DNA from: an uncultured delta proteobacterium
GTDB lineage: Bacteria; Myxococcota_A; UBA9160; SZUA-336
Direction: 5' to 3'
Assembly (NCBI GenBank): GCA_963704165.1
Contig: CAVPHD010000003.1
Span: 548,217-612,216 of the forward strand
DNA length: 64,000 nt
Of this stretch, positions 44,000-64,000 are shown piece by piece (the first letter of the stretch is position 1; each line of letters begins with the position of its first letter). Below the pieces are notes generated by a model. The model was not told where the DNA came from. It was given only the letters and a program-made list of their open reading frames with translations, and made no database searches. The position numbers and the translations under genes are program-made.

Positions 44000-44966
44000 T
44001 CAGCCCGGAAAATACTGACGGGTGATGGCGTCGTGGGCGGCCATGAGCTCGCGTACCACTTCGTCGCAGAAACGGCTCAGGTCGGGATCGGGACATGATC
44101 TGGTCATCCTCGTAAGTGAGACGGGCGTGCAGCTTGCCGATCGTCCGCTCCGCGGAGCTCGACCTGCGCCGCGCCCGGAAGCTGTCGCACGTAGGTGGCG
44201 ATCCGATTGACGCCGCAGAGACCGACACGGGGCGCCGAGCGATCGAAGAGCAGGAAGCGAAGAACCGCTCGCGAACCAGCCCCGCGCCGTGAACGCGCCG
44301 GAAGTTCTCGAGCGATGCCAGAGAGCGCAGGAGTCCGCGCCAGCGCGCATAGATGAGCGGGAGATCGCGCTCGCCCGTCGGGTCTTTCAACGCCGGGCAG
44401 CTTCGCGCGCAGGACCAGGATCGTGCGGCGCGTGCGCTCGATCGCCTCGCCGAGCTTCATGAAGGTCCAGCCCTGGTCTCGGGTGAGCGTGTTCTCGACC
44501 GATGCCCAGCGTCGTGAGCACCTGGCGGTGCGCGCGGACGATCTCGTGTGGGCGGTGACGGGGTCGGACGGCGGCGACCGGCGAAGGTTCTCGAGCGCGA
44601 GATAGCCCTCGTTCAGGTTGCGAATACACCTCCCGCGTCAGCGCTTCGCGCACGGATCGCGCGTTCTCTCGCGCGCGGCCCATGCAGTTCCGCACCGACA
44701 CGGGATTCTCGGGGTCGAGCAACAACCAGTTCATGTACACGACCGAGAGCGCCCTTTCGTCGTTCGAGATCGGAACCGGTGTGCCGCCTGCGGGAACCGC
44801 ATCGATCACGTCGCGCCATTCGTCACGCGCGAGCGCCGGGTCGAGACCTTCGATCTCGACCGAGAGCTCGCTCGCGACCAACGCAGAGGCGGCGTCACGT
44901 TCTCCGCACGCTCCAGGTAGCGACCCAGTCCAGATAGAGGGAATCGGCGACACGCGAGAGGATCAT
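44000..44966 (-). CDS. Alpha-E domain protein, heavily frameshifted
   Basis: [55 protein letters not shown] across frames; operon context. Confidence 0.78.
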
Positions 44967-46404
44967 TTCGGCTTCTCGTCGAGCACCCAGGTGTCCTTGC
45001 TGCCGCCGCCCTGCGAGGAGTTCACGACGTACGAGCCCTCGCGCAGCGCGACGCGTGTGAGCCCGCCCGGCAGCACGCGCACGCGATCGCCGTAGAGCAC
45101 GAACGGCCGCAGGTCGATGCGACGCGGCCGGAAGGCGTCTGTCGAGAAAGGTGCGGGCTGCGAAGAGAGCTCGACGAGCGGCTGCGCGATGTAGCCGCCG
45201 GGATTGCGTCAGCATCTGGCTTGCGGTACTCGGCGATCTCGTTCTTGCTCGCGAAGGGCCCCATCAACATGCCGTAGCCGCCGGAGTCGCCGGTCGTCTT
45301 CACGACCAGCTCGTGCAGGTGCTCGAGCATGTAGGCGAAGTCGTCGTCGCGCATTCCGACGTAGGTCGGCACCTGACCGAGCAGCGGTTCCTCGCCGAGA
45401 TAGAAGCGGATCAGATCGGGCATGAACGCGTAGGTCGCCTTGTCGTCGGCCACGCCGGCTCCCGGCGCGTTGGCGAGCGCCACGTTGCCCGCGCGGTAGG
45501 CGTTGATCAGGCCGGGTACGCCGAGCGTGCTGTCGCGCCGGAAGGCCAGAGGATCGAGGAAGTCGTCGTCGATGCGCCGATAGATCACGTTCGACGCGCT
45601 GGCGGCCTTCGGTGGTGCGCATGAAGACCTGATTGTCTTCGACGACGAGATCGCGGCCTTCGACCAGCGGGACGCCCATCTCGCGCGCGAGAAAGGAGTG
45701 CTCGAAGTAGGCGGAGTTGAAGATCCCCGGCGTCAGCAGCACCGCGCGCGCCGACTGGCCCTCGAGCGGCGCGGAGTGCGCGAGCGTGTCGAGCAGGAGC
45801 TGCGGGTAGCTCTCGACGGCCGCACCGGGTGCGACGCGAAGAGCTCGGGAAACGACCGCTCAAGAGGTTCCGGTTCTCGAGCACGTACGAGACGCCGCTC
45901 GGGCAGCGGCAGTTGTCCTCCAGCACCAGGTACTCACCGCGCTCGTTGCGGATCAGATCGGTCCCGACCACGTGGGTGTAGACCTTCGCGCGGCGGAGAC
46001 ACTCCGAGCAGCTCGCGCTTGAACTCCTTGCGCGTGAGCACCAGCTCCCACGGCACGATGCCCTCGTGCAGGCACCGCTGCTCGCCGTAGACGTCGGAGA
46101 GGAACAGGTTGAGCGCCGTCACGCGCTGGACGAGGCCGTCTTCGATCTGCTTCCACTCGTCCGCTGGAATGATGCGCGGCACGAAGTCGAACGGAAAGAT
46201 CCGCTCGACACCCTCGTCCTCGCCGTACACGGCGAACGTGATGCCCTGGTTCAAGAGCGAGAGCTGGATCAGCTTCTCGCGGCGCGCGATCTCCTTCGGA
46301 TCGAGCGCACCGAGCGTCGCCACGAGCTCGGCATAGTGGGGGCGCGGACGATCCTTGGCCTCGAAGATCTCGTCGAAGCCTTCCGCCTCTCGTAGCCACT
46401 GCAT
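44963..46404 (-). CDS. Circularly permuted type 2 ATP-grasp protein, frameshifted
   Basis: [67 protein letters not shown]. Confidence 0.88.
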
Positions 46405-51051: not shown

Positions 51052-51136
51052 CAGTTGCCCTCCAACACGGCGATCGACGTCGGTGTCGGCGCCTAACTTA
51101 ATCTGCCGGGCTGCGGCAGGCAAATGCGCATCGGCC

Positions 51137-54449: not shown

Positions 54450-54584
54450 CCCGCCGCCTGAAGGCTCGGAACGCGGCTGTGTGGCACCGCGCCATCGGTT
54501 TCAGCTGCGCACCGGTTGCTCCCCCACGAACGTATCACGGCCAATCCCCCCGGAGGAGCGGCACCGTGCCCGACGGTCACGAGA

Positions 54585-55103
54585 TCAGTGGTGATGGGCT
54601 TCGGGCGCGGGGGAAAGACCGGGGAAGCGGTGCCGAGCATACGTCGCGTGGCAACCGACGCAGGCCTCCGTGAGCTTGTACGTGTAGAACGCAGCGAGCT
54701 CCGCGTCGGCGCTCTTGGCGGCCGAAGCCAATCGCTGCGACTGCGCATGAAACTCCCGGTCGAGCGCGAGAAACGACTCGGGCAGGACCCGATGGAGTTC
54801 GCCCCGCTGGTCTGCACTCAGGCGCTGTTCGAGGATGAACGAACCCTTGATCTCTCCCGCGTCGCGTTCGACGGCGGCCCAATCCGCGCGAGCCACCGCC
54901 GAGACCACACGTTGAAGACCCAGATCGAGATGCTGCATCTCCGCGATGAAGGCAGCGCGAAGCTCTGGCGACAGCTCGACGGTCGGGCCATCCGACGACT
55001 GAGCCCACGCCTGACTGGAGCACACGAAGACGACGGTAAGTGCCGTGGCTACCCACCGAGTGAGCGTAGAGAGCGACATGAGTTCCTCCCATTCTCTGGC
55101 CAT
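54585..55103 (-). CDS. Periplasmic class II (c'-like) cytochrome c
   Basis: Signal peptide ending AWA; helical body; C-terminal CVGCH; start ATG 55103 or 55079. Confidence 0.8.
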   Translation of the reverse strand: MAREWEELMSLSTLTRWVATALTVVFVCSSQAWAQSSDGPTVELSPELRAAFIAEMQHLDLGLQRVVSAVARADWAAVERDAGEIKGSFILEQRLSADQRGELHRVLPESFLALDREFHAQSQRLASAAKSADAELAAFYTYKLTEACVGCHATYARHRFPGLSPAPEAHHH

Positions 55104-55177
55104 CTGACGGTTCGACTCTCGGGTGCGACGGCTCGGACTTCCCGAGTCCGGCCTACCTCGAGAGCAGCATGCCAGAC
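55102..55177 (-). mobile_element. attC-like site (degenerate)
   Basis: Minus: GTCTGGC-ATGCT-GCTCTCGAGGT..hairpin..ACCCGAGAGT-CGAACC-GTCAGAT(G); one extra base on the left arm; R' overlaps the next ATG. Confidence 0.55.
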
Positions 55178-55303
55178 ACGATCGGCGTGCGAAACCGAGA
55201 ACCGGGATCCAGTCAGCTACACGCCCTCGTCGAACGGCATGCGGGCCGGGCCGGCTCAGAATCAGGTTGCGGGTGGCCACGTCGAAGCGCAGCATCGTGC
55301 GCA

Positions 55304-56155
55304 GTGCCGCGCTTGCAGAGAAAGAGCTTCACGACGCCGGACCAGGTCCGCACGTTCACGACGGGTCGAATCGAGATCGTCAGCCTCGACGAGGTGGCCG
55401 TCGGTCGTTTCGTGTTTCACCCGGGCTGGAAGTGGTCCAAGGACGTCGCGCCGGTCGCCGGTACTAGCTCCTGCCAGCATCGCCACGTCGGCTACACGAT
55501 CTCGGGCTCCCTCGAGGTGTGCATGGACGACGGAACGAAGCTCGTCATCGGACCGGGCGAGGCTTACGAGATACCTCCGGGTCACGACGCCTGGGTCGTC
55601 GGCGATGAAGCGTGGGACTCGGTCGAGTTCACGAGCGCTCACGAGTTCGGGCTCTCGCCCGACGATCTCGGTGAGCGCGTGCTGGCGACGATCCTCTTCA
55701 GCGACATCGTCGGCTCGACGGCTCTGCTCGAACGAGTCGGCGACCACGCCTGGGCCAAGCTCGTGCGCGAGCACAACGTGAGGATCCGCGCCGCCATCGA
55801 TCGCCATCGCGGTCGCGAGATCGACTCGACCGGCGACGGATTCCTCGCGCTCTTCGACGGAGCCGCGAAGGCCGTGCACGCGGCCGCGCTGATGGATCCA
55901 TCGGTCAAAGAGCTCGGCGCCCGCGTGCGCGTCGGCATCCACACCGGCGAGGTCGAGATCGTCGGCGGGAAGGCGCGCGGCGTTGCCGTTCACGCCGCGG
56001 CGCGTGTCGCCTCTCTCGGCGGTCCGGGCGACGTGCTCGTCTCGGGTACCACGCGCGATCTGCTCGACGGGTCGGGTTTGTCCTTCGAATCGCGGGGCGA
56101 ACACGAGCTCAAAGGTCTGAGCGGCGCTCGGCCGGTCTTCGCGCTGCTGCGCTGA
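55304..56155 (+). CDS. Cupin domain fused to class III adenylate/guanylate cyclase
   Basis: PGWKWS..CQHRHVGY..IPPGHDAWVVG; ILFSDIVGST, TGDGFLALF, GIHTGE, VHAAARV, LKGL. Confidence 0.9.
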   Translation: MPRLQRKSFTTPDQVRTFTTGRIEIVSLDEVAVGRFVFHPGWKWSKDVAPVAGTSSCQHRHVGYTISGSLEVCMDDGTKLVIGPGEAYEIPPGHDAWVVGDEAWDSVEFTSAHEFGLSPDDLGERVLATILFSDIVGSTALLERVGDHAWAKLVREHNVRIRAAIDRHRGREIDSTGDGFLALFDGAAKAVHAAALMDPSVKELGARVRVGIHTGEVEIVGGKARGVAVHAAARVASLGGPGDVLVSGTTRDLLDGSGLSFESRGEHELKGLSGARPVFALLR

Positions 56156-56178
56156 ACGGCGCTCCGGAAGTCCGATCT

Positions 56179-56568
56179 TCACGACTCGGTGATGCTCACG
56201 ATGTTGCCGTCGGGATCGAGGTATCGCGCGGTCCTGCCCCACGGCTCGCTCCTCGGCTCCGCGACGACTTTCGCTCCCGATGCAATCACTCGTCGGTGGA
56301 CCGATTCGAAGTCCGACACGTGAAACCCGATCTGCACCGCCGTGGTCACCGGGCGCTGCGGCGGATGCGCCGGGTACACGGCGAAGTGGAGGAACGCACC
56401 GTCGGTCCACGAGTACGCGGCATGCTCGCCCCCGTACCATGGGTCCTGCTTCTCGGAGTCGTGAGAAGCGTCGTCAAGCGCAATGCCGAGAACGTCGCGA
56501 TAGAACCGAAGCGATCGTCGAAGATCGGACACGCTCAGCGCGACGAAGCTGAGTCGGCGATCCGTCAT
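56179..56568 (-). CDS. VOC/glyoxalase family protein
   Basis: VSDLRRSLRFYRDVLG, EPWG, DPDGN. Confidence 0.88.
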   Translation of the reverse strand: MTDRRLSFVALSVSDLRRSLRFYRDVLGIALDDASHDSEKQDPWYGGEHAAYSWTDGAFLHFAVYPAHPPQRPVTTAVQIGFHVSDFESVHRRVIASGAKVVAEPRSEPWGRTARYLDPDGNIVSITES

Positions 56569-56602
56569 GGCGTGTCTCCATCCCGTCCAATGGTGGATGG
56601 GT

Positions 56603-57193
56603 TCACAGCCAGCGCCGAACGCGGGCCCGGTAGGCCCGGTACTGCGACCCGTGCAGTTGGGTGAGGTGGACCTCTTCCAATCGTACCTGGACCTGGATCA
56701 GGACCTCACCGACGAGCAGCAGTCCGATCGTCGCCGCACTTGGAACGACGAGGAAGAGTCCGAGCAGCGTGACCCTCATCGAGAGGAAGATCGGGTTTCT
56801 GGAGATCCGAAAAAGACCCACCTGGACGAGATCGGTGCGGTTCTCCGAATCGATGCCGATTCGCCACGAGGCTCCCATCTGTGCCTGGGCGATCAGCACC
56901 CACAGGAGTGACGCGATCAGAAGGAGCCAACCCGCGATCACGAGTGCCGGGATCTCGAGCTTGGAAAGTGGGCCGACCCAGCTGGCGGAAGACGGGTGGA
57001 AGTTCAGCCCCACGACGACCACGCACGCAGCGATCACGATCTTGAACGCGCGTCCTACATAGCCGTAGGCATCGTCTTCGGAAGTGAGCACGAGCGGGTT
57101 CTGACCCGTTCTCCGGTAGACGAGGACGCTTCGCCAGACGAACGCAAGCCCCAAGTAGGCGACTAAGTAGATGGCGAGTGCGAATGCTCTCAA
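56603..57193 (-). CDS. Isoprenylcysteine carboxyl methyltransferase (ICMT/PEMT) family
   Basis: MGASWRIGID, GLFRISRNPIF, EEVHL, YRARVRRWL. Confidence 0.88.
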   Translation of the reverse strand: MRAFALAIYLVAYLGLAFVWRSVLVYRRTGQNPLVLTSEDDAYGYVGRAFKIVIAACVVVVGLNFHPSSASWVGPLSKLEIPALVIAGWLLLIASLLWVLIAQAQMGASWRIGIDSENRTDLVQVGLFRISRNPIFLSMRVTLLGLFLVVPSAATIGLLLVGEVLIQVQVRLEEVHLTQLHGSQYRAYRARVRRWL

Positions 57194-57589
57194 GCGACGC
57201 CCCGCGCTTCCTCACCCGGAGTCGCCCGACAGTCGTCGAACGGGCGCAACACGAGTGTTCGAAGGCGACTGAACATCGGCGCGATCCCTCCTCGTCCCCC
57301 ATCTCTCATGGGTCGAGAATCTGGCCTCGGAACGTACCACCTGGGCGGACCGCTTACGATTGGTGGTGTCGGATCCGAACCGAGCCGCGTGCCCGCCGAC
57401 CCTCGAACCGCAGCGCAGCGCATCCGTAGGGAAGCTGATCTCATCGACAACCGAGTGCATCACCTCCCATTGCAACGCTTGGCGGTCCCGGTGCGCGAAG
57501 ACCACTCGCGGGATTCACCATCGGTTGCCACCCGTCGTCTCGCTGCATACGCTCCTTCGATGGGTGTGAATCATGGAAGCGGGGATGTT

Positions 57590-58108
57590 GTGAGCGCGAT
57601 TCGACGGGCCTTCTTGGCACTTGCCTTCGTGATGACTGCGAACCCGAGCGCCGCGCAGAGCGAGAGCCGAGGCGACTGGAAGCCGATGGCCGATTTCGAG
57701 AGCGTCGATGCGTTCGAGAAACAGCTCTCGCGCGACTAGGAGGATTGCCTGGCGGGGGCGGGTGGAGGCTCCATGGCCGTGACGTGCTTCAAGCTCTACG
57801 AGCTCTGGGACCGCGAGCTGAACATCCAGTACGCGAGGATCCAGGGCGTACTCGACGCGGAGGGGAAGAGGAAACTCGCGGAGTCGCAGAGGCGTTGGAT
57901 CGAGTTCCGGGACTCCACCTTCGCATTCGAATCCTACGTGCTCGCCTTCACCTACAGCGCGCCCGGCACGATGTGGATCGCGATCCGAGCGGGAGAAGCG
58001 GACAAGTCAATGGCCGGAATCGCCAGGGATCGAACGCTCATGCTGCTCGATTGGGAAAAGCGATGGGCGCGTGGGCCCGTCGACGAGGAATCCCTGCTCA
58101 ATGAGTGA
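57590..58108 (+). pseudogene. LprI (DUF1311) lysozyme-inhibitor family secreted protein with in-frame TAG
   Basis: Signal peptide; TAG at 57737-57739 in frame with EDCLAG..C..WDRELNIQY..LAESQRRWIEFRD. Confidence 0.7.
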
Positions 58109-58144
58109 GGATGACCCGCTGCACTTCGTCGTCGGCCGACGACC

Positions 58145-58556
58145 TCACTTCTTCGAAACGGGTGGAGCACCCGGGGTCGCGTCGACGGGCCCCTCGAACG
58201 CGATGAAGAGCGTGCACGGCTGACTGCTGACGCAACGGCCGTGGTGAGGCGCCTTCGGCGGACCGTAGGCATACATCCCGGGTTTCAAGACGACGGCCTC
58301 TTGGCCTTCGTAGGTGATGCTCAGCTCGCCCTCGACGAGAACCATGCGCTCGGCCGAACCATTCCAGTGGTTCGGGAGATCGTAGTTCGCCGCGATTCGA
58401 AAGAAGACATCTGCGTTCGGCTTTGCGGGATCCCCATGCAGGACCGCGATCTGGCACCCGGCGGGGAAGAACTCAGGACACGATCCCGACTCGAACGGAT
58501 GCAGAGATGAACGCCCCGGCCATCACGTGCAGACACCAGATCGAGACTCGTCGCAC
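58145..58556 (-). pseudogene. DUF4437-like cupin, N-terminal frameshift/deletion
   Basis: CPEFFPAGCQIAVLHGDPAKPNADVFF..SAERMVLVEG..PGMYAYGP..PHHGRC; upstream GTG/signal segment in another frame. Confidence 0.7.
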
Positions 58557-58612
58557 GGGCACCCTCCTTCGCGTTGCCGCCCAACCGATCCGTTCTCATC
58601 GTAGCCACCGCG

Positions 58613-58981
58613 CTAGAGTGGTCGATGGTCACCGTTGGGTCCCGGCGTCACATGAATGAGTTGAGTTTCTTCTAGCACATTGACGAGGTGCCACTCGCCT
58701 CTTCGAACGATGCAGGCGTCGCCGGGACCCATTTCAATCGGAGCGTTGGGTTCTGATTCGCCCGTGACCCGGAGCTTTCCAGACACGACGTACAGGATCT
58801 CGTCACCGTCCGGATGAACCTCTCCACGATGGGGCGCGTCATGGGACATCGTCACGATTCCGATGGTCATGCCATCGATTCTCTCCGGGGGACCCGGTTT
58901 TCCCGCTCGAGCCGAAACAGAGAGATCCCGGTGGATGTCGAACAGATAGCGGGAAGGGTCGACTCGAGTGATCTTGCTCAT
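58613..58981 (-). CDS. Cupin domain protein
   Basis: GEVHPDGDEILYVVSG, PGDACIVRRGEWH. Confidence 0.88.
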   Translation of the reverse strand: MSKITRVDPSRYLFDIHRDLSVSARAGKPGPPERIDGMTIGIVTMSHDAPHRGEVHPDGDEILYVVSGKLRVTGESEPNAPIEMGPGDACIVRRGEWHLVNVLEETQLIHVTPGPNGDHRPL

Positions 58982-59016
58982 CGATGCATCTCCGTAGTCA
59001 CGACGATCACACGGTC

Positions 59017-59078
59017 GCCCGACGTTTCACGCATCAGCTGCGGCGCGCAGCGTCGGCTGCCGCACGCGCTCGTCGAGA
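59017..59078 (-). mobile_element. attC-like site (62 bp, degenerate)
   Basis: Minus: TCTCGAC-GAGCG-CGTGCGGC-AGCCGACGCTGCGCGCCGCA-GCTGATG-CGTGAAAC-GTCGGGC. Confidence 0.65.
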
Positions 59079-59759
59079 AGCGCGTGCGACGTCGCGACGC
59101 CCGGTGCTGTTCGTCAGGTTGGCCTTGAGGAAACCAACGGTGCGCTTCCACGCGAGTGCCGCGGCCTTGGCCTCGAAGGAATCGGTACGGTCCGACTCGA
59201 AGAACCAATGGCCGGTCCGTGGATACTGGTGGAACGTGGCAGGCACGCCGACTCGATCGAAGTGTCGAGCCAGCTTCTTGACCGCTGTCTCCGAGACCCA
59301 GTCATCGTTCTCGGCGAAATGACAAAGAAAGGAAGATCGAGTCCGAGAGAAGTCACCGTTTCGAGCAGCGTAGAAGCTGACCGTCGCCGCGATTGGAAGC
59401 TCCGGTCGCTGAGCGAGCCAGAAGGTCCAATGACCTCCCATCGAGAATCCCACCTGGCCGATGTCTGACCCTACGACGGCTTCATGGTGCCTGAGAACCT
59501 CGATCTTGCGGATGAGGAACTTGTAGACCGGCTCGCGCCGTCCGGCGGTCGCGGACGCCCGCAGCTTCTGCGCGGCGGATGGGGTAACCGCGACCTTGCC
59601 TCCGAAGAGGTCCGGAGCCAGCGCCACGAAGCCCTTGGATGCCAAACGCTCACACACCTCGCGGAAGAAGGCGTTGAGGCCCCACCAGGAATGCAGCACA
59701 AGCACGCCTCTTCCCGAGCCGCACCTTGGTACGGCCAGGTAGTGCTCAGAAGTATTCAC
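59034..59759 (-). CDS. Dienelactone hydrolase family
   Basis: LHSWWGLN, LAPDLFGG, GFSMGG, HFAEND, GHWFFE. Confidence 0.9.
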   Translation of the reverse strand: MNTSEHYLAVPRCGSGRGVLVLHSWWGLNAFFREVCERLASKGFVALAPDLFGGKVAVTPSAAQKLRASATAGRREPVYKFLIRKIEVLRHHEAVVGSDIGQVGFSMGGHWTFWLAQRPELPIAATVSFYAARNGDFSRTRSSFLCHFAENDDWVSETAVKKLARHFDRVGVPATFHQYPRTGHWFFESDRTDSFEAKAAALAWKRTVGFLKANLTNSTGRRDVARASRRARAAADAARRS

Positions 59760-59783
59760 CTGCTCATCGTCGCTGTTCCGTCC

Positions 59784-59939
59784 GCCTGACGGATCGGGCT
59801 TCAGCTGCGCGGCACGGCGCCGCCGAGGCCAGCTGAACCCCGATGGTGTTGCATCAAACTATCACGCCCGAACTCGCTCGAGCAGCACCGCGGCCGCTGC
59901 AGCGCCGGGTTGTTCGACAGCCGCAGCGCCTTGCTGGAC
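59784..59939 (-). mobile_element. attC-like site with two candidate left arms
   Basis: Minus: GTCCAGC-AAGGC-GCTGCGGCT, then GTCGAAC..GGCGCTGCAGCGG..; right arm GCAGCTGAAGCCCGATCC-GTCAGGC. Confidence 0.65.
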
Positions 59940-59948
59940 GACGGGCAC

Positions 59949-60725
59949 CTATGATTGCCCGTTCCGGTGCCCGGAATCCGAACCGGCTACTTCTCGCACG
60001 GCAAAGTCGACGAACTCGACCGCCCGGGGCGCTGGATCGCTCGCACCCGGCTGGCTGCGCCATGCGAGCGAGTGCTCGATGAGACCAGACCACTGCGGGT
60101 ACTCCCGCTGGGCCCAAAGCGCGGCCTGTCGCTTGGAGGTCTGTCGAGAGGATCGGCAGACGTGCAGCGCTCGGCAGATCGTGAGCACCGCGTATGCGTG
60201 GAAGCCCGGCTGATCGGAGAGCGCGATCCAGCTTGGCCACGCGTGCAGATGCGCCCGAACCTCGGCCAGGAATTCACCACTCGTAATGGTCGGCATCCAC
60301 ACCGTCGGTGGCAGACCGAGCAGGGTCTGACCCTGCTCCTGAAGCAGATACCAGTTGATGATGTGCTGGCTGGTATCGGTCAGGTGGAGGGGCTCACCGG
60401 GGCTGATGAAAGCCGTACGGCTCGGCTGCGAGCGGAAGCTGCGGAGCGCCGCGACCGGGACGTAGATCACGTCCACGCGATCGTCCCACGAAGGGTGAGT
60501 CACGGCTAGATCCCCGTGCAGCCGCTCCAAGTCGTGAAGGCGCGCTTCAACTTCGAACGAACACGCCACGACGAGGTCCAGGTCGCTTCGGTCCGGGTCG
60601 AAGTCGCCCGCCACGGCAGAGCCGTACAGACAGACGGAAACCACTTGATCCGCGAAGACAATCTGCAATCGCTCGATCAGGTCTCGCAGCACTTCGTTCG
60701 CGGATACGTGCGGCGTCAGTCGCAT
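59949..60725 (-). CDS. Aminoglycoside adenylyltransferase-like nucleotidyltransferase (AadA/DUF4111-like)
   Basis: LYGSAVAGDFDPDRSDLDL pol-beta motif; YAVLTICR..TSKRQAALWA C-terminal domain. Confidence 0.8.
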   Translation of the reverse strand: MRLTPHVSANEVLRDLIERLQIVFADQVVSVCLYGSAVAGDFDPDRSDLDLVVACSFEVEARLHDLERLHGDLAVTHPSWDDRVDVIYVPVAALRSFRSQPSRTAFISPGEPLHLTDTSQHIINWYLLQEQGQTLLGLPPTVWMPTITSGEFLAEVRAHLHAWPSWIALSDQPGFHAYAVLTICRALHVCRSSRQTSKRQAALWAQREYPQWSGLIEHSLAWRSQPGASDPAPRAVEFVDFAVREVAGSDSGHRNGQS

Positions 60726-60797
60726 CGCGGGACCTCCCGCCGGTCCGCGGACCAATGCTCCGCTTCCGCTCTTGACCTCATCAGCTTCGATCCGGCC

Positions 60798-60929
60798 GCG
60801 TAGGTCTTCGGCTTCGGCTGCCAGAGCCCGCGCCGCGTCCTTGATCGAACCTACACCGCATGATGCCACGCGCTCCCGGTGGTGGACAGAGCCAAGCGGG
60901 CCCTCGTCAGTTGCAAGCCCTTGTTGGGC
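60798..60929 (-). mobile_element. attC-like site (intact R'', decayed R')
   Basis: Minus: GCCCAAC-AAGGG-CTTGCAAC-TGACGAGGGCCCGC...GCGGGCTCTGGCA-GCCGAAG-CC; R' unrecognisable (CCTACGC). Confidence 0.7.
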
Positions 60930-60949
60930 AGCGGCCCTTCGGACTCCGA

Positions 60950-61360
60950 TCACGGCTCAACGGTAACCACGACAGACGGCGCGGACCGTTGGGCGGGACC
61001 GTGATGAACAACCTCCAGGTTGTTGCCGTCAGGATCAAGGAAGTAAGCGCTGTAGTACCCCGGGTGGTATGCACGCGCGCCGGGGGCTCCGTTGTCACTT
61101 GCACCTGCCGCAATCGCTTCGCGATAGCAGCGATCGACCTCACCGCGATCAGCCGCCTGGAACGCGAGGTGGACACGCGAAGTCTGTTCGCCCCCGCCTG
61201 CCGTCACGAATAGTTCGTCGGCGGCGAAGAACCCCGGCCCGTCCATGGTGATGTCGCGTTCGAGCGAACGCAGGACACTACGATAGAACAGCTTGCTCGC
61301 CTCGAGATCCGCCACGCGGAGGTGCACGTGGTCGATCAGCCTTCCGAGATGAAGCTCCAT
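60950..61360 (-). CDS. VOC/glyoxalase family protein
   Basis: GRLIDHVHL, VHLAFQA, YHPGYYSAYFLDPDGNNLE. Confidence 0.9.
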   Translation of the reverse strand: MELHLGRLIDHVHLRVADLEASKLFYRSVLRSLERDITMDGPGFFAADELFVTAGGGEQTSRVHLAFQAADRGEVDRCYREAIAAGASDNGAPGARAYHPGYYSAYFLDPDGNNLEVVHHGPAQRSAPSVVVTVEP

Positions 61361-61385
61361 CCTTGCGAGTCTCCCACGTGCCGGC

Positions 61386-61420
61386 GCCTGACGGGAATGG
61401 AGTTCAGCGGCTTCTTGGAC
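61386..61420 (-). mobile_element. Collapsed attC-like site (35 bp)
   Basis: Minus: GTCCAAG-AAGCC-GCTG-AACTCCATTCCC-GTCAGGC; both outer boxes present, central stem missing. Confidence 0.55.
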
Positions 61421-61430
61421 GGCGGGCTGG

Positions 61431-61995
61431 TCAGGGACGGTTCAGCTTGAACTGCTTCGCGTACTCTGGGAACTCGTTCAGGACTTCGATGGCGATGCCG
61501 ACGGACGGGCCGACGGCGGCGACGATCTCTTTGGGACTCGGCACCGACTTCTTTTCTGCGAGACGCTGTGCGACGAAGTCGTGCATCTCGGGGATCCGGG
61601 CCCGGCGCTCGGCCTCCTCTTCCTCGGTAAGCGGCTGTTGGACGTGGATGTGGTTGCCGAGGAAAGAGGTGCGTGAGGTAGATGACCGGGAACTCGTACG
61701 GAGCAGCCGAGATCACCTCTGCGGCTCCGGGACGGCGCTCGTTCCACTCGTCTGCCAAGGCCTGCGCGTCCGCGACCTTGATGTTCAGCCAGACGTTCGA
61801 CGGAGTGCCGGGATGCTCGTTGAGCGCGATCTCGAGCCCGTCGCGGGAGACCCAGGCGATCCTCGGCTCGCCGGGCGCCTCCTTCCATTCACCGTCGAGC
61901 TGGAAGCCGAGCCAGTCGACGTAGTAGTCGATCGCCTGCTCCATCGACCGGACCCCGAGGACCGGGTGCCACGATTGAAAGTTTCGCTCGGCCAT
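61431..61995 (-). CDS. VOC/bleomycin-resistance-like protein with C-terminal helical extension, frameshift near 61660
   Basis: PVLGVRSMEQAIDYYVDWLGF; alternate frame GNHIHVQQPL...EYAKQFKLNRP*; GAGGA RBS. Confidence 0.75.
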
Positions 61996-62081: not shown

Positions 62082-62209
62082 GCCCAACGGCTCGCGGCCA
62101 AGCTGCCGACCCGCTGGCCGGCTGGCTGGAACCGCTTGGTTTCGTTGCCCAATGGTACACGGTTGATGATCGCGAGCTGTGGCAGGTCAGCTTCATCCGC
62201 TCGCTAGCC
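62082..62209 (-). mobile_element. attC-like site (128 bp)
   Basis: Minus: GGCTAGC-GAGCG-GATGAAGCTGACC...GGCAGCTTGGCCGCGAGCC-GTTGGGC; R'' contains the upstream gene's stop codon. Confidence 0.75.
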
Positions 62210-62884: not shown

Positions 62885-62945
62885 GGCTAACGCTCGGCAT
62901 CAGCGGAGGCGCGCAGCGCCGTCCGCTGCCGTGCCGTTGCGGGGC
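62885..62945 (-). mobile_element. attC-like site (61 bp, classic 59-be size)
   Basis: Minus: GCCCCGC-AACGG-CACGGCAGC-GGACGGCGCTGCGCGCCTCC-GCTGATG-CCGAGC-GTTAGCC. Confidence 0.78.
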
Positions 62946-62950
62946 GGCGA

Positions 62951-63674
62951 TCAGTCGGGGCCGTGCATGCTGGCTCTTCGACTTTGCCTGGGCAGGCGTC
63001 TGCGCGAGGACACCGTCCTCCATCTCGTAGAATGTGTCGAACACGTCCGGCCCGGTGGTCGTGCGTCACGACGATTACTCCAGTGCCGTGCTGGTGGGCC
63101 ACTTCGCGGAACAGCCCCATCACCTGACGGCCCGCGTCGCTGTCGAGGGCGGCGGTCGGCTCGTCGGCGAGGATGAGGCTGGGCTGATTCGCCAGTGCGC
63201 GGCGACGGTGACGCGCTGCTGCTCGCCCCTGCGAGTTGGGTGGGTCGCTTGGAGGCGCACACCCACGCCCCGTGCGCCAGCAGCTCCATCGCGCGGCGGC
63301 GGGCTCCGACGGCGGCTGACCGATCAGCTCGCCCACGACCTGGACGTTCTCGACCGCATTTAGGAACGGGATCAGGTTGGATTCTGGAACACGAAGCCGA
63401 TGTTCTCGCGGCGAAAGCGACGCAGATCGGCGACGGCGCGCCGCGCGTCCACGACGGGCTTGCCGCCGATGGCCACGCGCCCGCGGGTGGGCGGGTTGAT
63501 GAGGCCGACGCAGAGGAGGAACGTGGACTTGCCCGCGCCGCTCGGGCCGAGCAGGGCGACGATCTCGCCGCGGCGCACGCGCATGGACGCATCGCGCATG
63601 GCGACCACCTCGGTGTGCCCGCTGCCGTACACCTTGGTCAGTCCGTCGGTCTCCAGTGCCAGCGTCTCGCCCAT
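62951..63674 (-). CDS. ABC transporter ATP-binding protein (LolD/MacB-type), multiple frameshifts
   Basis: GPSGAGKST, IGFVFQ, NLIPFLNAVENV, ILADEPTAALD, VVTHD. Confidence 0.82.
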
Positions 63675-63701
63675 TCCGATGCGATCCTGCAACCGTTCGC
63701 G

Positions 63702-64000
63702 TCAACCGATGGCCTCGTTGGGGGCAACGCGCATCGCCTTCCAGATGCCCAGGAGGCTCGCGAGCACCGAAATGACCAACACGATTCCCGCCCAAGCGGA
63801 GCAGATCGTCATTCGTCACCAGCACGCGCCGGGGGAACATCGGGAAGAGCCGCAGCCCGATGAGGTACCCCGACGCCGAACGCCAGCGCCCCCATGATGA
63901 GGGATTGCTGGAGGATCAGCCCGACAATGGTGTGGTTGGGGAGCGCCGATGAGCTTGAGGAGCGCGATCGGATGGAGCTTGTCGAGCGTGAGCGTGTAGA
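63702..64000 (-). CDS. ABC transporter permease (FtsX/MacB-type), 3' part only, frameshifted
   Basis: YTLTLDKL..IALLKLIGAP..IVGLILQQ..ASLLGIWKAMRVAPNEAIG*; directly upstream of the ATPase gene. Confidence 0.7.

Follow-up and report, generated by a model that had tools for sequence, protein, structure and literature searches.

The 64,000-nucleotide stretch analyzed here (the window; positions 548,217 to 612,216 of contig CAVPHD010000003.1, assembly GCA_963704165.1, from an uncultured delta proteobacterium) contains a row of integron attC sites, the R' boxes of which repeatedly read GTC in place of GTT. This raises the question whether the changes reflect decay of the array after loss of its integrase, selection to lock cassettes in place, or a variant integrase accepting GTC cores, the three options put forward in an earlier, sequence-only reading of the window. 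As the assembly reads, GTT has indeed become GTC at four old attC sites; these changes probably represent mutational wear among the oldest sites of a complete chromosomal integron, and not a new specificity. This explanation rests on an intact integrase gene (intI) and a GTT-type attI site, on proximal sites with GTT, on decay of the distal sites over their whole length, and on host-like distal DNA.

The attC sites were identified with a profile trained on canonical attC sites of related genomes, in which core positions 2 and 3 were set neutral to avoid favoring GT-. This profile, which gave 11 matches outside arrays in the whole assembly at ≥16 bits, was used instead of a generic hairpin scan, since the latter returned mostly noise. 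The following sites and candidates were obtained:

62885..62945, minus strand: short attC with R' GTTAGCC kept and an eroded R'' (GCCCCGC in the family alignment), E=2.8e-10
62082..62209, minus strand: attC with R' GTTGGGC kept and R'' GGCTAGC, the TAG of which ends the upstream frame
61386..61464, minus strand: eroded attC, R' GTCAGGC, R'' lost (GTACGCG)
60798..60929, minus strand: full-length attC with an intact R'' (GCCCAAC) and an R' eroded by changes of other kinds
59784..59939, minus strand: attC with R' GTCAGGC and 5' arms at two places, GAACAAC at 59915 (inner) and GTCCAGC at 59939 (outer)
59017..59078, minus strand: short attC, paired TCTCGAC and GTCGGGC cores, eroded arms
58579..58585, minus strand: R' remnant, GTTGGGC, GTT kept
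58114..58137, minus strand: attC 5' arm, R'' GGCCGAC (GCCCAAC in the homologous cassettes of genomes G008 and G010)
57224..57282, minus strand: imperfect hairpin, unconfirmed as attC, with GTCGGGC at its end; a methyltransferase-like gene (56603-57193) lies downstream
55102..55235, minus strand: eroded 134-base attC, R'' GTTCGAC, R' GTCAGAT
54456..54541, minus strand: attC remnant, R' TTCAGGC (G1>T and T3>C), two family matches with E about 1e-4

All five GTC heptamers listed in the sequence-only reading (at 61392, 59790, 59023, 57230, and 55108) are present on the minus strand, and four of them belong to attC sites. The 61392 site scored 16.3 bits for its 3' arm and weakly (4.6) for its 5' arm; the 59790 site reached 29.7 bits, with 138 BLAST matches to related attC sites; the site at 59017-59078 was matched by a covariance model of short attC sites (E=3e-6); and the 55108 site possesses both arms (9.2 and 12.0 bits), spaced by the 134 bases usual for the family, with no BLAST family found for it. 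The hairpin at 57230 was not confirmed (profile score −7.0, no BLAST match, and no covariance model match). The complementary GAC/GTC pair at 59017-59078 is present as claimed, and the statement that AAC and GTT are never retained together in one site applies to the sites found here, depending on the alignment in the case of 62891. The R'' boxes with GAC or AGC exist as well, but some had been assigned to the wrong sites: GGCCGAC (58137) closes the cassette starting with GTTGGGC at 58585, GGCTAGC (62209) belongs to the GTT site at 62088, and for the 55108 site, the true R'' is GTTCGAC at 55235 rather than GTCTGGC. Four elements had been overlooked, namely the GTT box at 58585, which together with its tail is identical to the start of the homologous cupin cassette in G008 and G010, the full site 60929-60798 with its intact AAC, the inner AAC arm at 59915, and the remnant at 54462. 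Thus, nine R' boxes are recognizable between 62891 and 54462, five of which carry C at the third core base (T3>C; 61392, 59790, 59023, 55108, and 54462), three retain GTT, and one is eroded otherwise; a clean GCT box was not found among the nine. The boxes at 51097 (GTTAGGC, score 1.4) and 54024 (GTCGGTG) were unsupported and excluded from this count.

Viewed on its own, the window resembles an attC cluster that has no integron integrase (CALIN; Cury et al. 2016). This classification was rejected, because intI lies at the head of the same array on another contig (C8), beyond the contig break:

C8:64625-65569, minus strand: intI, TIGR02249
C8:65940 (G): putative attI, by position and sequence, with GTTAGGC directly ahead of the first cassette
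Window 63690..64000, minus strand: ABC permease gene, 3' portion, truncated where the contig ends; the 5' portion forms the end of C8
C12:192650-200373: second cassette cluster on contig C12, seven GTT attC sites, no adjacent intI

The join between C8 and the contig of the window (C3) was bridged by sequence comparison with a homolog of the permease gene in genome G182. This homolog spans both ends, the C8 tail reaching position 1803 and the C3 tail starting from 1796, with a 6-base gap. Since one gene is broken across the two ends, the window holds the distal half of a complete integron, with intI located approximately 8.4 kb past the contig break. From the attI-like GTTAGGC to its end, C8 consists of cassettes. 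Accordingly, the locus comprises intI, an attI with GTTRRRY upstream of intI and facing the array, an array contiguous with intI, and at least two co-oriented attC sites with R''-L''-L'-R' anatomy. The integrase (468 bits, no stops) is the only one above the TIGR02249 cut-off in the assembly, which is 84% complete. Of the earlier proposal that AT-to-GC drift froze the array after integrase loss, the drift is supported, while the loss is contradicted by the uninterrupted intI and the GTT attI at the array head.

The GTC sites are located 10.9-17.9 kb from attI. Among the boxes on C8, five read GTT and one GTG, and GTT is found in all seven attC sites on C12, so that T3>C occurs in 0/13 of these boxes compared to 5/9 distal ones (p=0.005). 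Near attI, the dinucleotide signature is foreign, with a relative TC abundance of 1.23-1.31; in the region of the GTC sites it is host-like (1.45-1.58, the host median being 1.56). Compared to the family consensus, six distal sites changed from AT to GC at 32 of 153 positions and from GC to AT at 29 of 393 (p=3e-5); within these six, T3 became C in four and a non-core spacer A became G in three. The distal attC at 60798-60929 is 88% identical to the proximal site at C8:67001. Decay by other routes was also observed, with a gene whose frame continues through its attC and with truncation at two sites. The homologous cassettes in other genomes keep GTT or AAC. We propose that cassettes pushed far from attI would gather AT-to-GC substitutions, GTT>GTC among them, if distance from attI is taken as age. 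The changed sites are predicted to be poor substrates, and the cassettes would become fixed as a by-product, the distal sites presumably no longer recombining.

Base-calling or assembly errors are an extremely improbable source of the changes. Frameshifts in the ABC genes at the contig end might point to them; however, the same change is found in many other genomes, like contexts read GTT at C12:196329 and C12:200367, the neighboring frames are open, and the changes follow a positional gradient.

The encoded integrase aligns to VchIntIA (PDB 2A3V) with E=3.5e-100, and the equivalents of K160/G161, Y18, Y26, H271, H293, and Y302 are conserved, as are the integron-specific insertion and the catalytic R-K-H-R-H-Y residues. 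The lysine contacting T3 (K171 of IntI1, K160 of VchIntIA) is retained here and in 17 of 17 related integrases. Two otherwise invariant columns differ (E151 for D and G256 for A), both outside the motifs named by Frumerie et al. That study (Frumerie et al. 2010, PMC2811028) reports for IntI1 that recombination of paired GAC/GTC attC sites with wild-type attI1 reaches 1.0 of the normal frequency for aadA7 and 0.044 for VCRd, that two GTC partners achieve 0.0056 or 4.8e-5 of wild type, that an unpaired core yields 6e-6 compared to 2.2e-3, that in vitro cleavage of VCRd-GTC is not detectable, and that changes at core position 2 are better tolerated. Since an ordinary IntI1 accepts one GTC, no new enzyme is needed for GTC use. 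Since two GTC partners block IntI1, runs of GTC and unpaired cores are predicted to be stuck, and locking would be their consequence. In the predicted folds, a proximal site adopts the canonical hairpin (z −3.4), the 59790 and 55108 sites leave their cores unpaired, and at 59023 the cores are paired but the arms only in part. The engineered attCaadA7 and attCVCRd mutants carry the identical T3>C change; they were paired, otherwise intact, and assayed with IntI1 and attI1, whereas the sites studied here are natural, partly unpaired, eroded, and served by a different integrase.

Whether GTC cassettes were captured as such can be judged from the cassette genes of the distal tail:

60950..61360, minus strand: glyoxalase-family cassette gene with a GTC 5' box and AAC in its own R''
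59949..60722, minus strand: nucleotidyltransferase cassette gene, NTP_transf_2 and AadA_C domains
59034..59759, minus strand: dienelactone hydrolase cassette gene, its frame crossing R'' and L'' and stopping in L'
58613..58981, minus strand: cupin cassette gene

Crossover takes place after the G of the R' box, and its TC therefore moves with the downstream cassette; a GTC-type cassette should thus possess GAC at its own R''. This applies to one of the four GTC-starting cassettes (the hydrolase), while the glyoxalase cassette, whose 81% identical homolog in genome G026 begins with GTTAGGC, carries AAC. Conversely, the cupin cassette starts with GTT and has GAC at its R'' where the homologs have AAC. 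In relatives, 2/18 GAC cassettes begin with GTC. Given these proportions, the core changes most likely arose in place, and the cassettes would not have been captured as GTC/GAC. For the methyltransferase and hydrolase cassettes, only distant homologs (42%) were found in 225 genomes, none of them in cassettes. By its domains, the gene at 59949-60722 resembles aminoglycoside nucleotidyltransferases.

These data also bear on an integrase variant preferring GTC/GAC cores, for which the recurrence of GTC, the two paired GAC/GTC sites, and the E151 and G256 differences could be cited. However, the T3-contacting lysine and all catalytic residues are kept, attI and the recent cassettes are of the GTT type, the site family of this integron comprises 38 GTT sites and one GTC site, and a second integrase above the cut-off was not detected in the assembly. 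Moreover, GAC at the cassette's own R'' is the exception among GTC-starting cassettes here, and few GAC cassettes of relatives start with GTC, despite a stronger RYYY pairing by cassette (3.42) than by site (3.00). None of the signs of an integron with altered specificity, i.e., a changed T3-contact residue, GTC in attI or recent cassettes, or GAC/GTC pairing by cassette, was found in this system. The proposed variant integrase is already largely refuted, and we regard it as highly improbable. Natural GTC-core arrays or a GTC-specific integrase were not found in literature titles and abstracts, a search in which subscription journals were mostly outside the scope and supplements were not covered.

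To place the changes in a wider context, a core-neutral pattern was searched in 225 genomes of the class. T3 was changed in 13 matches (11 GTC, one of them from this array) and kept in 182; among the 150 T3-kept matches listed, 143 read GTT, five GCT, and two GGT. A scan of named genomes yielded GTT in 64/68 sites with a matching 5' arm and GTC in one. Furthermore, 525 attC sites from 70 genomes were compiled (140 loci scanned, 108 yielding sites), a set that is biased, as its loci had been chosen for their proximity to intI or to pattern hits, GTC and GCT hits among them, and as the profile favors one attC family. Within this set, GTC and GCT occurred 25 times each, were similarly distal (relative positions 0.67 and 0.63, compared to 0.48), and equally often lacked the 5' arm (10/25 each, vs. 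83/439); GTC and GCT did not cluster significantly by array (p=0.10). The locus L218 (G043:C22:1-7000) has GTC at four of its six sites, two of these with R'' GAC, and one cassette features a perfect GCCTGAC/GTCAGGC pair; among the loci covered, it is the best candidate for a mobile GAC/GTC cassette.

An equal frequency of T-to-C changes at all attC positions had been named beforehand as evidence against both selection for locking and a variant integrase, and such equality was observed at the class level. In 255 sites of 19 families, T>C or A>G changes numbered 12, 12, 11, and 12 at the four core A/T positions (4.3-4.7%), while the interior rate was 285/6843 (4.2%). T>C is thus as common at T3 as elsewhere, and both proposals fail this test at the class level. 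This array itself shows a small T3 excess, with T3>C in 5/9 boxes compared to 4/23 non-core positions of the same context (p=0.045), a post hoc comparison in an array picked for that very excess.

Under mutational wear, a modest TT>TC context bias, the ascertainment by the earlier reading, and chance may together explain the 5:0 skew of GTC over GCT. The host strongly prefers TC over CT, its hexamers favor GTC outcomes by 5.8:1 and 2.5:1, and in aged sites, AA>GA-type changes outnumber AA>AG-type ones by 28:11 (p=0.005), in part due to a preference for TGA stops. Several results weigh against this explanation, the T3 excess just described being one of them. The context bias was weakly supported in site interiors (3' T vs. 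5' T of TT, 4.3% vs. 2.7%, p=0.12) and in TT contexts within this array (7/28 vs. 3/28, p=0.30), and dinucleotide bias did not correlate with GTC versus GCT across genomes (rho 0.19 for array DNA, 0.06 for the flanks of 25 genomes). The skew has a probability of 0.03 without bias and of 0.09-0.45 with the measured biases. T3>C is also more frequent here than in old sites of relatives (5/9 vs. 10/89, p=0.004). Finally, T3>C was found in 7/22 sites of relatives with R'' A1>G (AAC>GAC) compared to 13/345 others (p=5e-5).

One process that could produce a T3 excess is a filter by the active integrase, which would remove cassettes with working sites and leave a tail enriched for T3>C, the most effective block to recombination, with or without host selection for retaining the genes. 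It fits the near-complete block between two GTC partners, the GTC attC left uncleaved in vitro, and the greater tolerance at position 2 reported in PMC2811028, and it agrees with the intact integrase, with a cassette shared by C8 and C12 at 99.6% identity over 271 bases, with three nearly consecutive GTC boxes, and with the T3 excess in this array as well as the class-wide ratio of 11 GTC to at least 5 GCT (p 0.1-0.2). We nevertheless consider it unlikely: T3 is not enriched in the 255 related sites, GCT is as distal as GTC, and GTT persists at 58585, 62088, and 62891. Sites are broken at many other positions, and T3 is therefore not needed; in addition, the published assays paired attC with attI using IntI1.

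The co-occurrence of GAC and GTC, seen in seven sites of six genomes, was significant in permutations within the locus (p=0.010), within the genome (p=0.0002), and within the degeneracy class (p=0.00015). It could arise if the facing base changes in place after a core mutation, by hairpin-templated repair or weak selection, and a G:C pair is thereby regained; the resulting GAC/GTC sites would stay usable for an ordinary integrase with a GTT partner. The excess among relatives with AAC>GAC, the two GAC/GTC sites at 59023 and 55108, and the reported activity of paired GTC sites with wild-type attI1 are consistent with such re-pairing. On the other hand, neighboring sites (offsets −2 to +2) show T3>C in 10/64, so that much of the signal is regional; position 2 shows no such effect (2/15, p=0.15), some loci were fetched for holding GTC, and both changes are one AAC>GAC substitution on opposite strands. 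Furthermore, the arms of the 59023 and 55108 sites are eroded, and only two of the four GTC sites would be covered. We judge re-pairing to be quite improbable. Because of the T3 excess and the GAC/GTC co-occurrence, it and the filter each keep some low probability beside mutational wear. A broader conjecture, to which we give a small chance, is a third-base ratchet: T3>C sites, often re-paired to GAC/GTC, would still be usable with a GTT partner, two in a row could not excise, and GTC runs would form a distinct domestication route under an ordinary active integrase.

The system, a chromosomal integron with a normal integrase and an eroded distal end, is of an already known kind. With sedentary chromosomal integrons (IntegronFinder definition, PMC4889954; VchIntIA, PDB 2A3V), it shares intI, a divergent attI, and co-oriented attC cassettes, as well as a BrnT/BrnA toxin-antitoxin cassette and insertion sequences (IS) in attC sites. 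It differs by its short array spread over two contigs and by its distal half, which has eroded, in part deleted attC sites and a host-like composition. The truncated sites at 58585 and 58137 and the frame running into attC (59034) resemble fused or domesticated cassettes that lost attC by slippage, as mentioned in 10.1101/2022.09.11.507474 and PMC8946536, except that point substitution, and not deletion alone, erodes the sites here. In this reading, the locus is a clear natural example of an age gradient within a single integron: cassettes close to attI are foreign and canonical, distal ones host-like and, by prediction, immobile. It also calls for caution, as CALIN calls at the window level and a motif-led reading overstate GTC. 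If the GAC/GTC co-occurrence held in a large unselected survey, the locus would gain in importance, since this would indicate repair templated by the hairpin, or else a locking step during the domestication of cassettes.

Several further observations were made around the array. The 3' end of the BrnT/BrnA cassette (C8:66553-66572) is a short attI-like site and not an attC, resembling the delta-attI cassettes of PMC12901181. The C12 cluster contains two attI-like stretches (192650-192781 and 197337-197487), ~80% identical to the attI region of C8, and the nearly identical cassette mentioned above is a truncated BrnT copy of the first C8 cassette. Directly downstream of intI (C8:59800-64530) lies what we take to be an imuB-like and dnaE2-like mutagenesis operon. 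One attC on C8 is interrupted by a presumably IS3-like element (C8:67443-68843), and in another, a remnant that we assume to be IS110-like (C8:71100-72097) stands in place of R''; the replaced R'' at this site, GTCCATC, was found again in many attC sites of relatives. Several frameshifts affect the ABC transporter and neighboring genes at 62887-64000 and 44900-46400 of the window, representing either pseudogenes or assembly error. Within the eroded array, a cupin-adenylate cyclase gene (55169-56155) and an LprI-domain gene (57773-58108) are encoded on the opposite strand.

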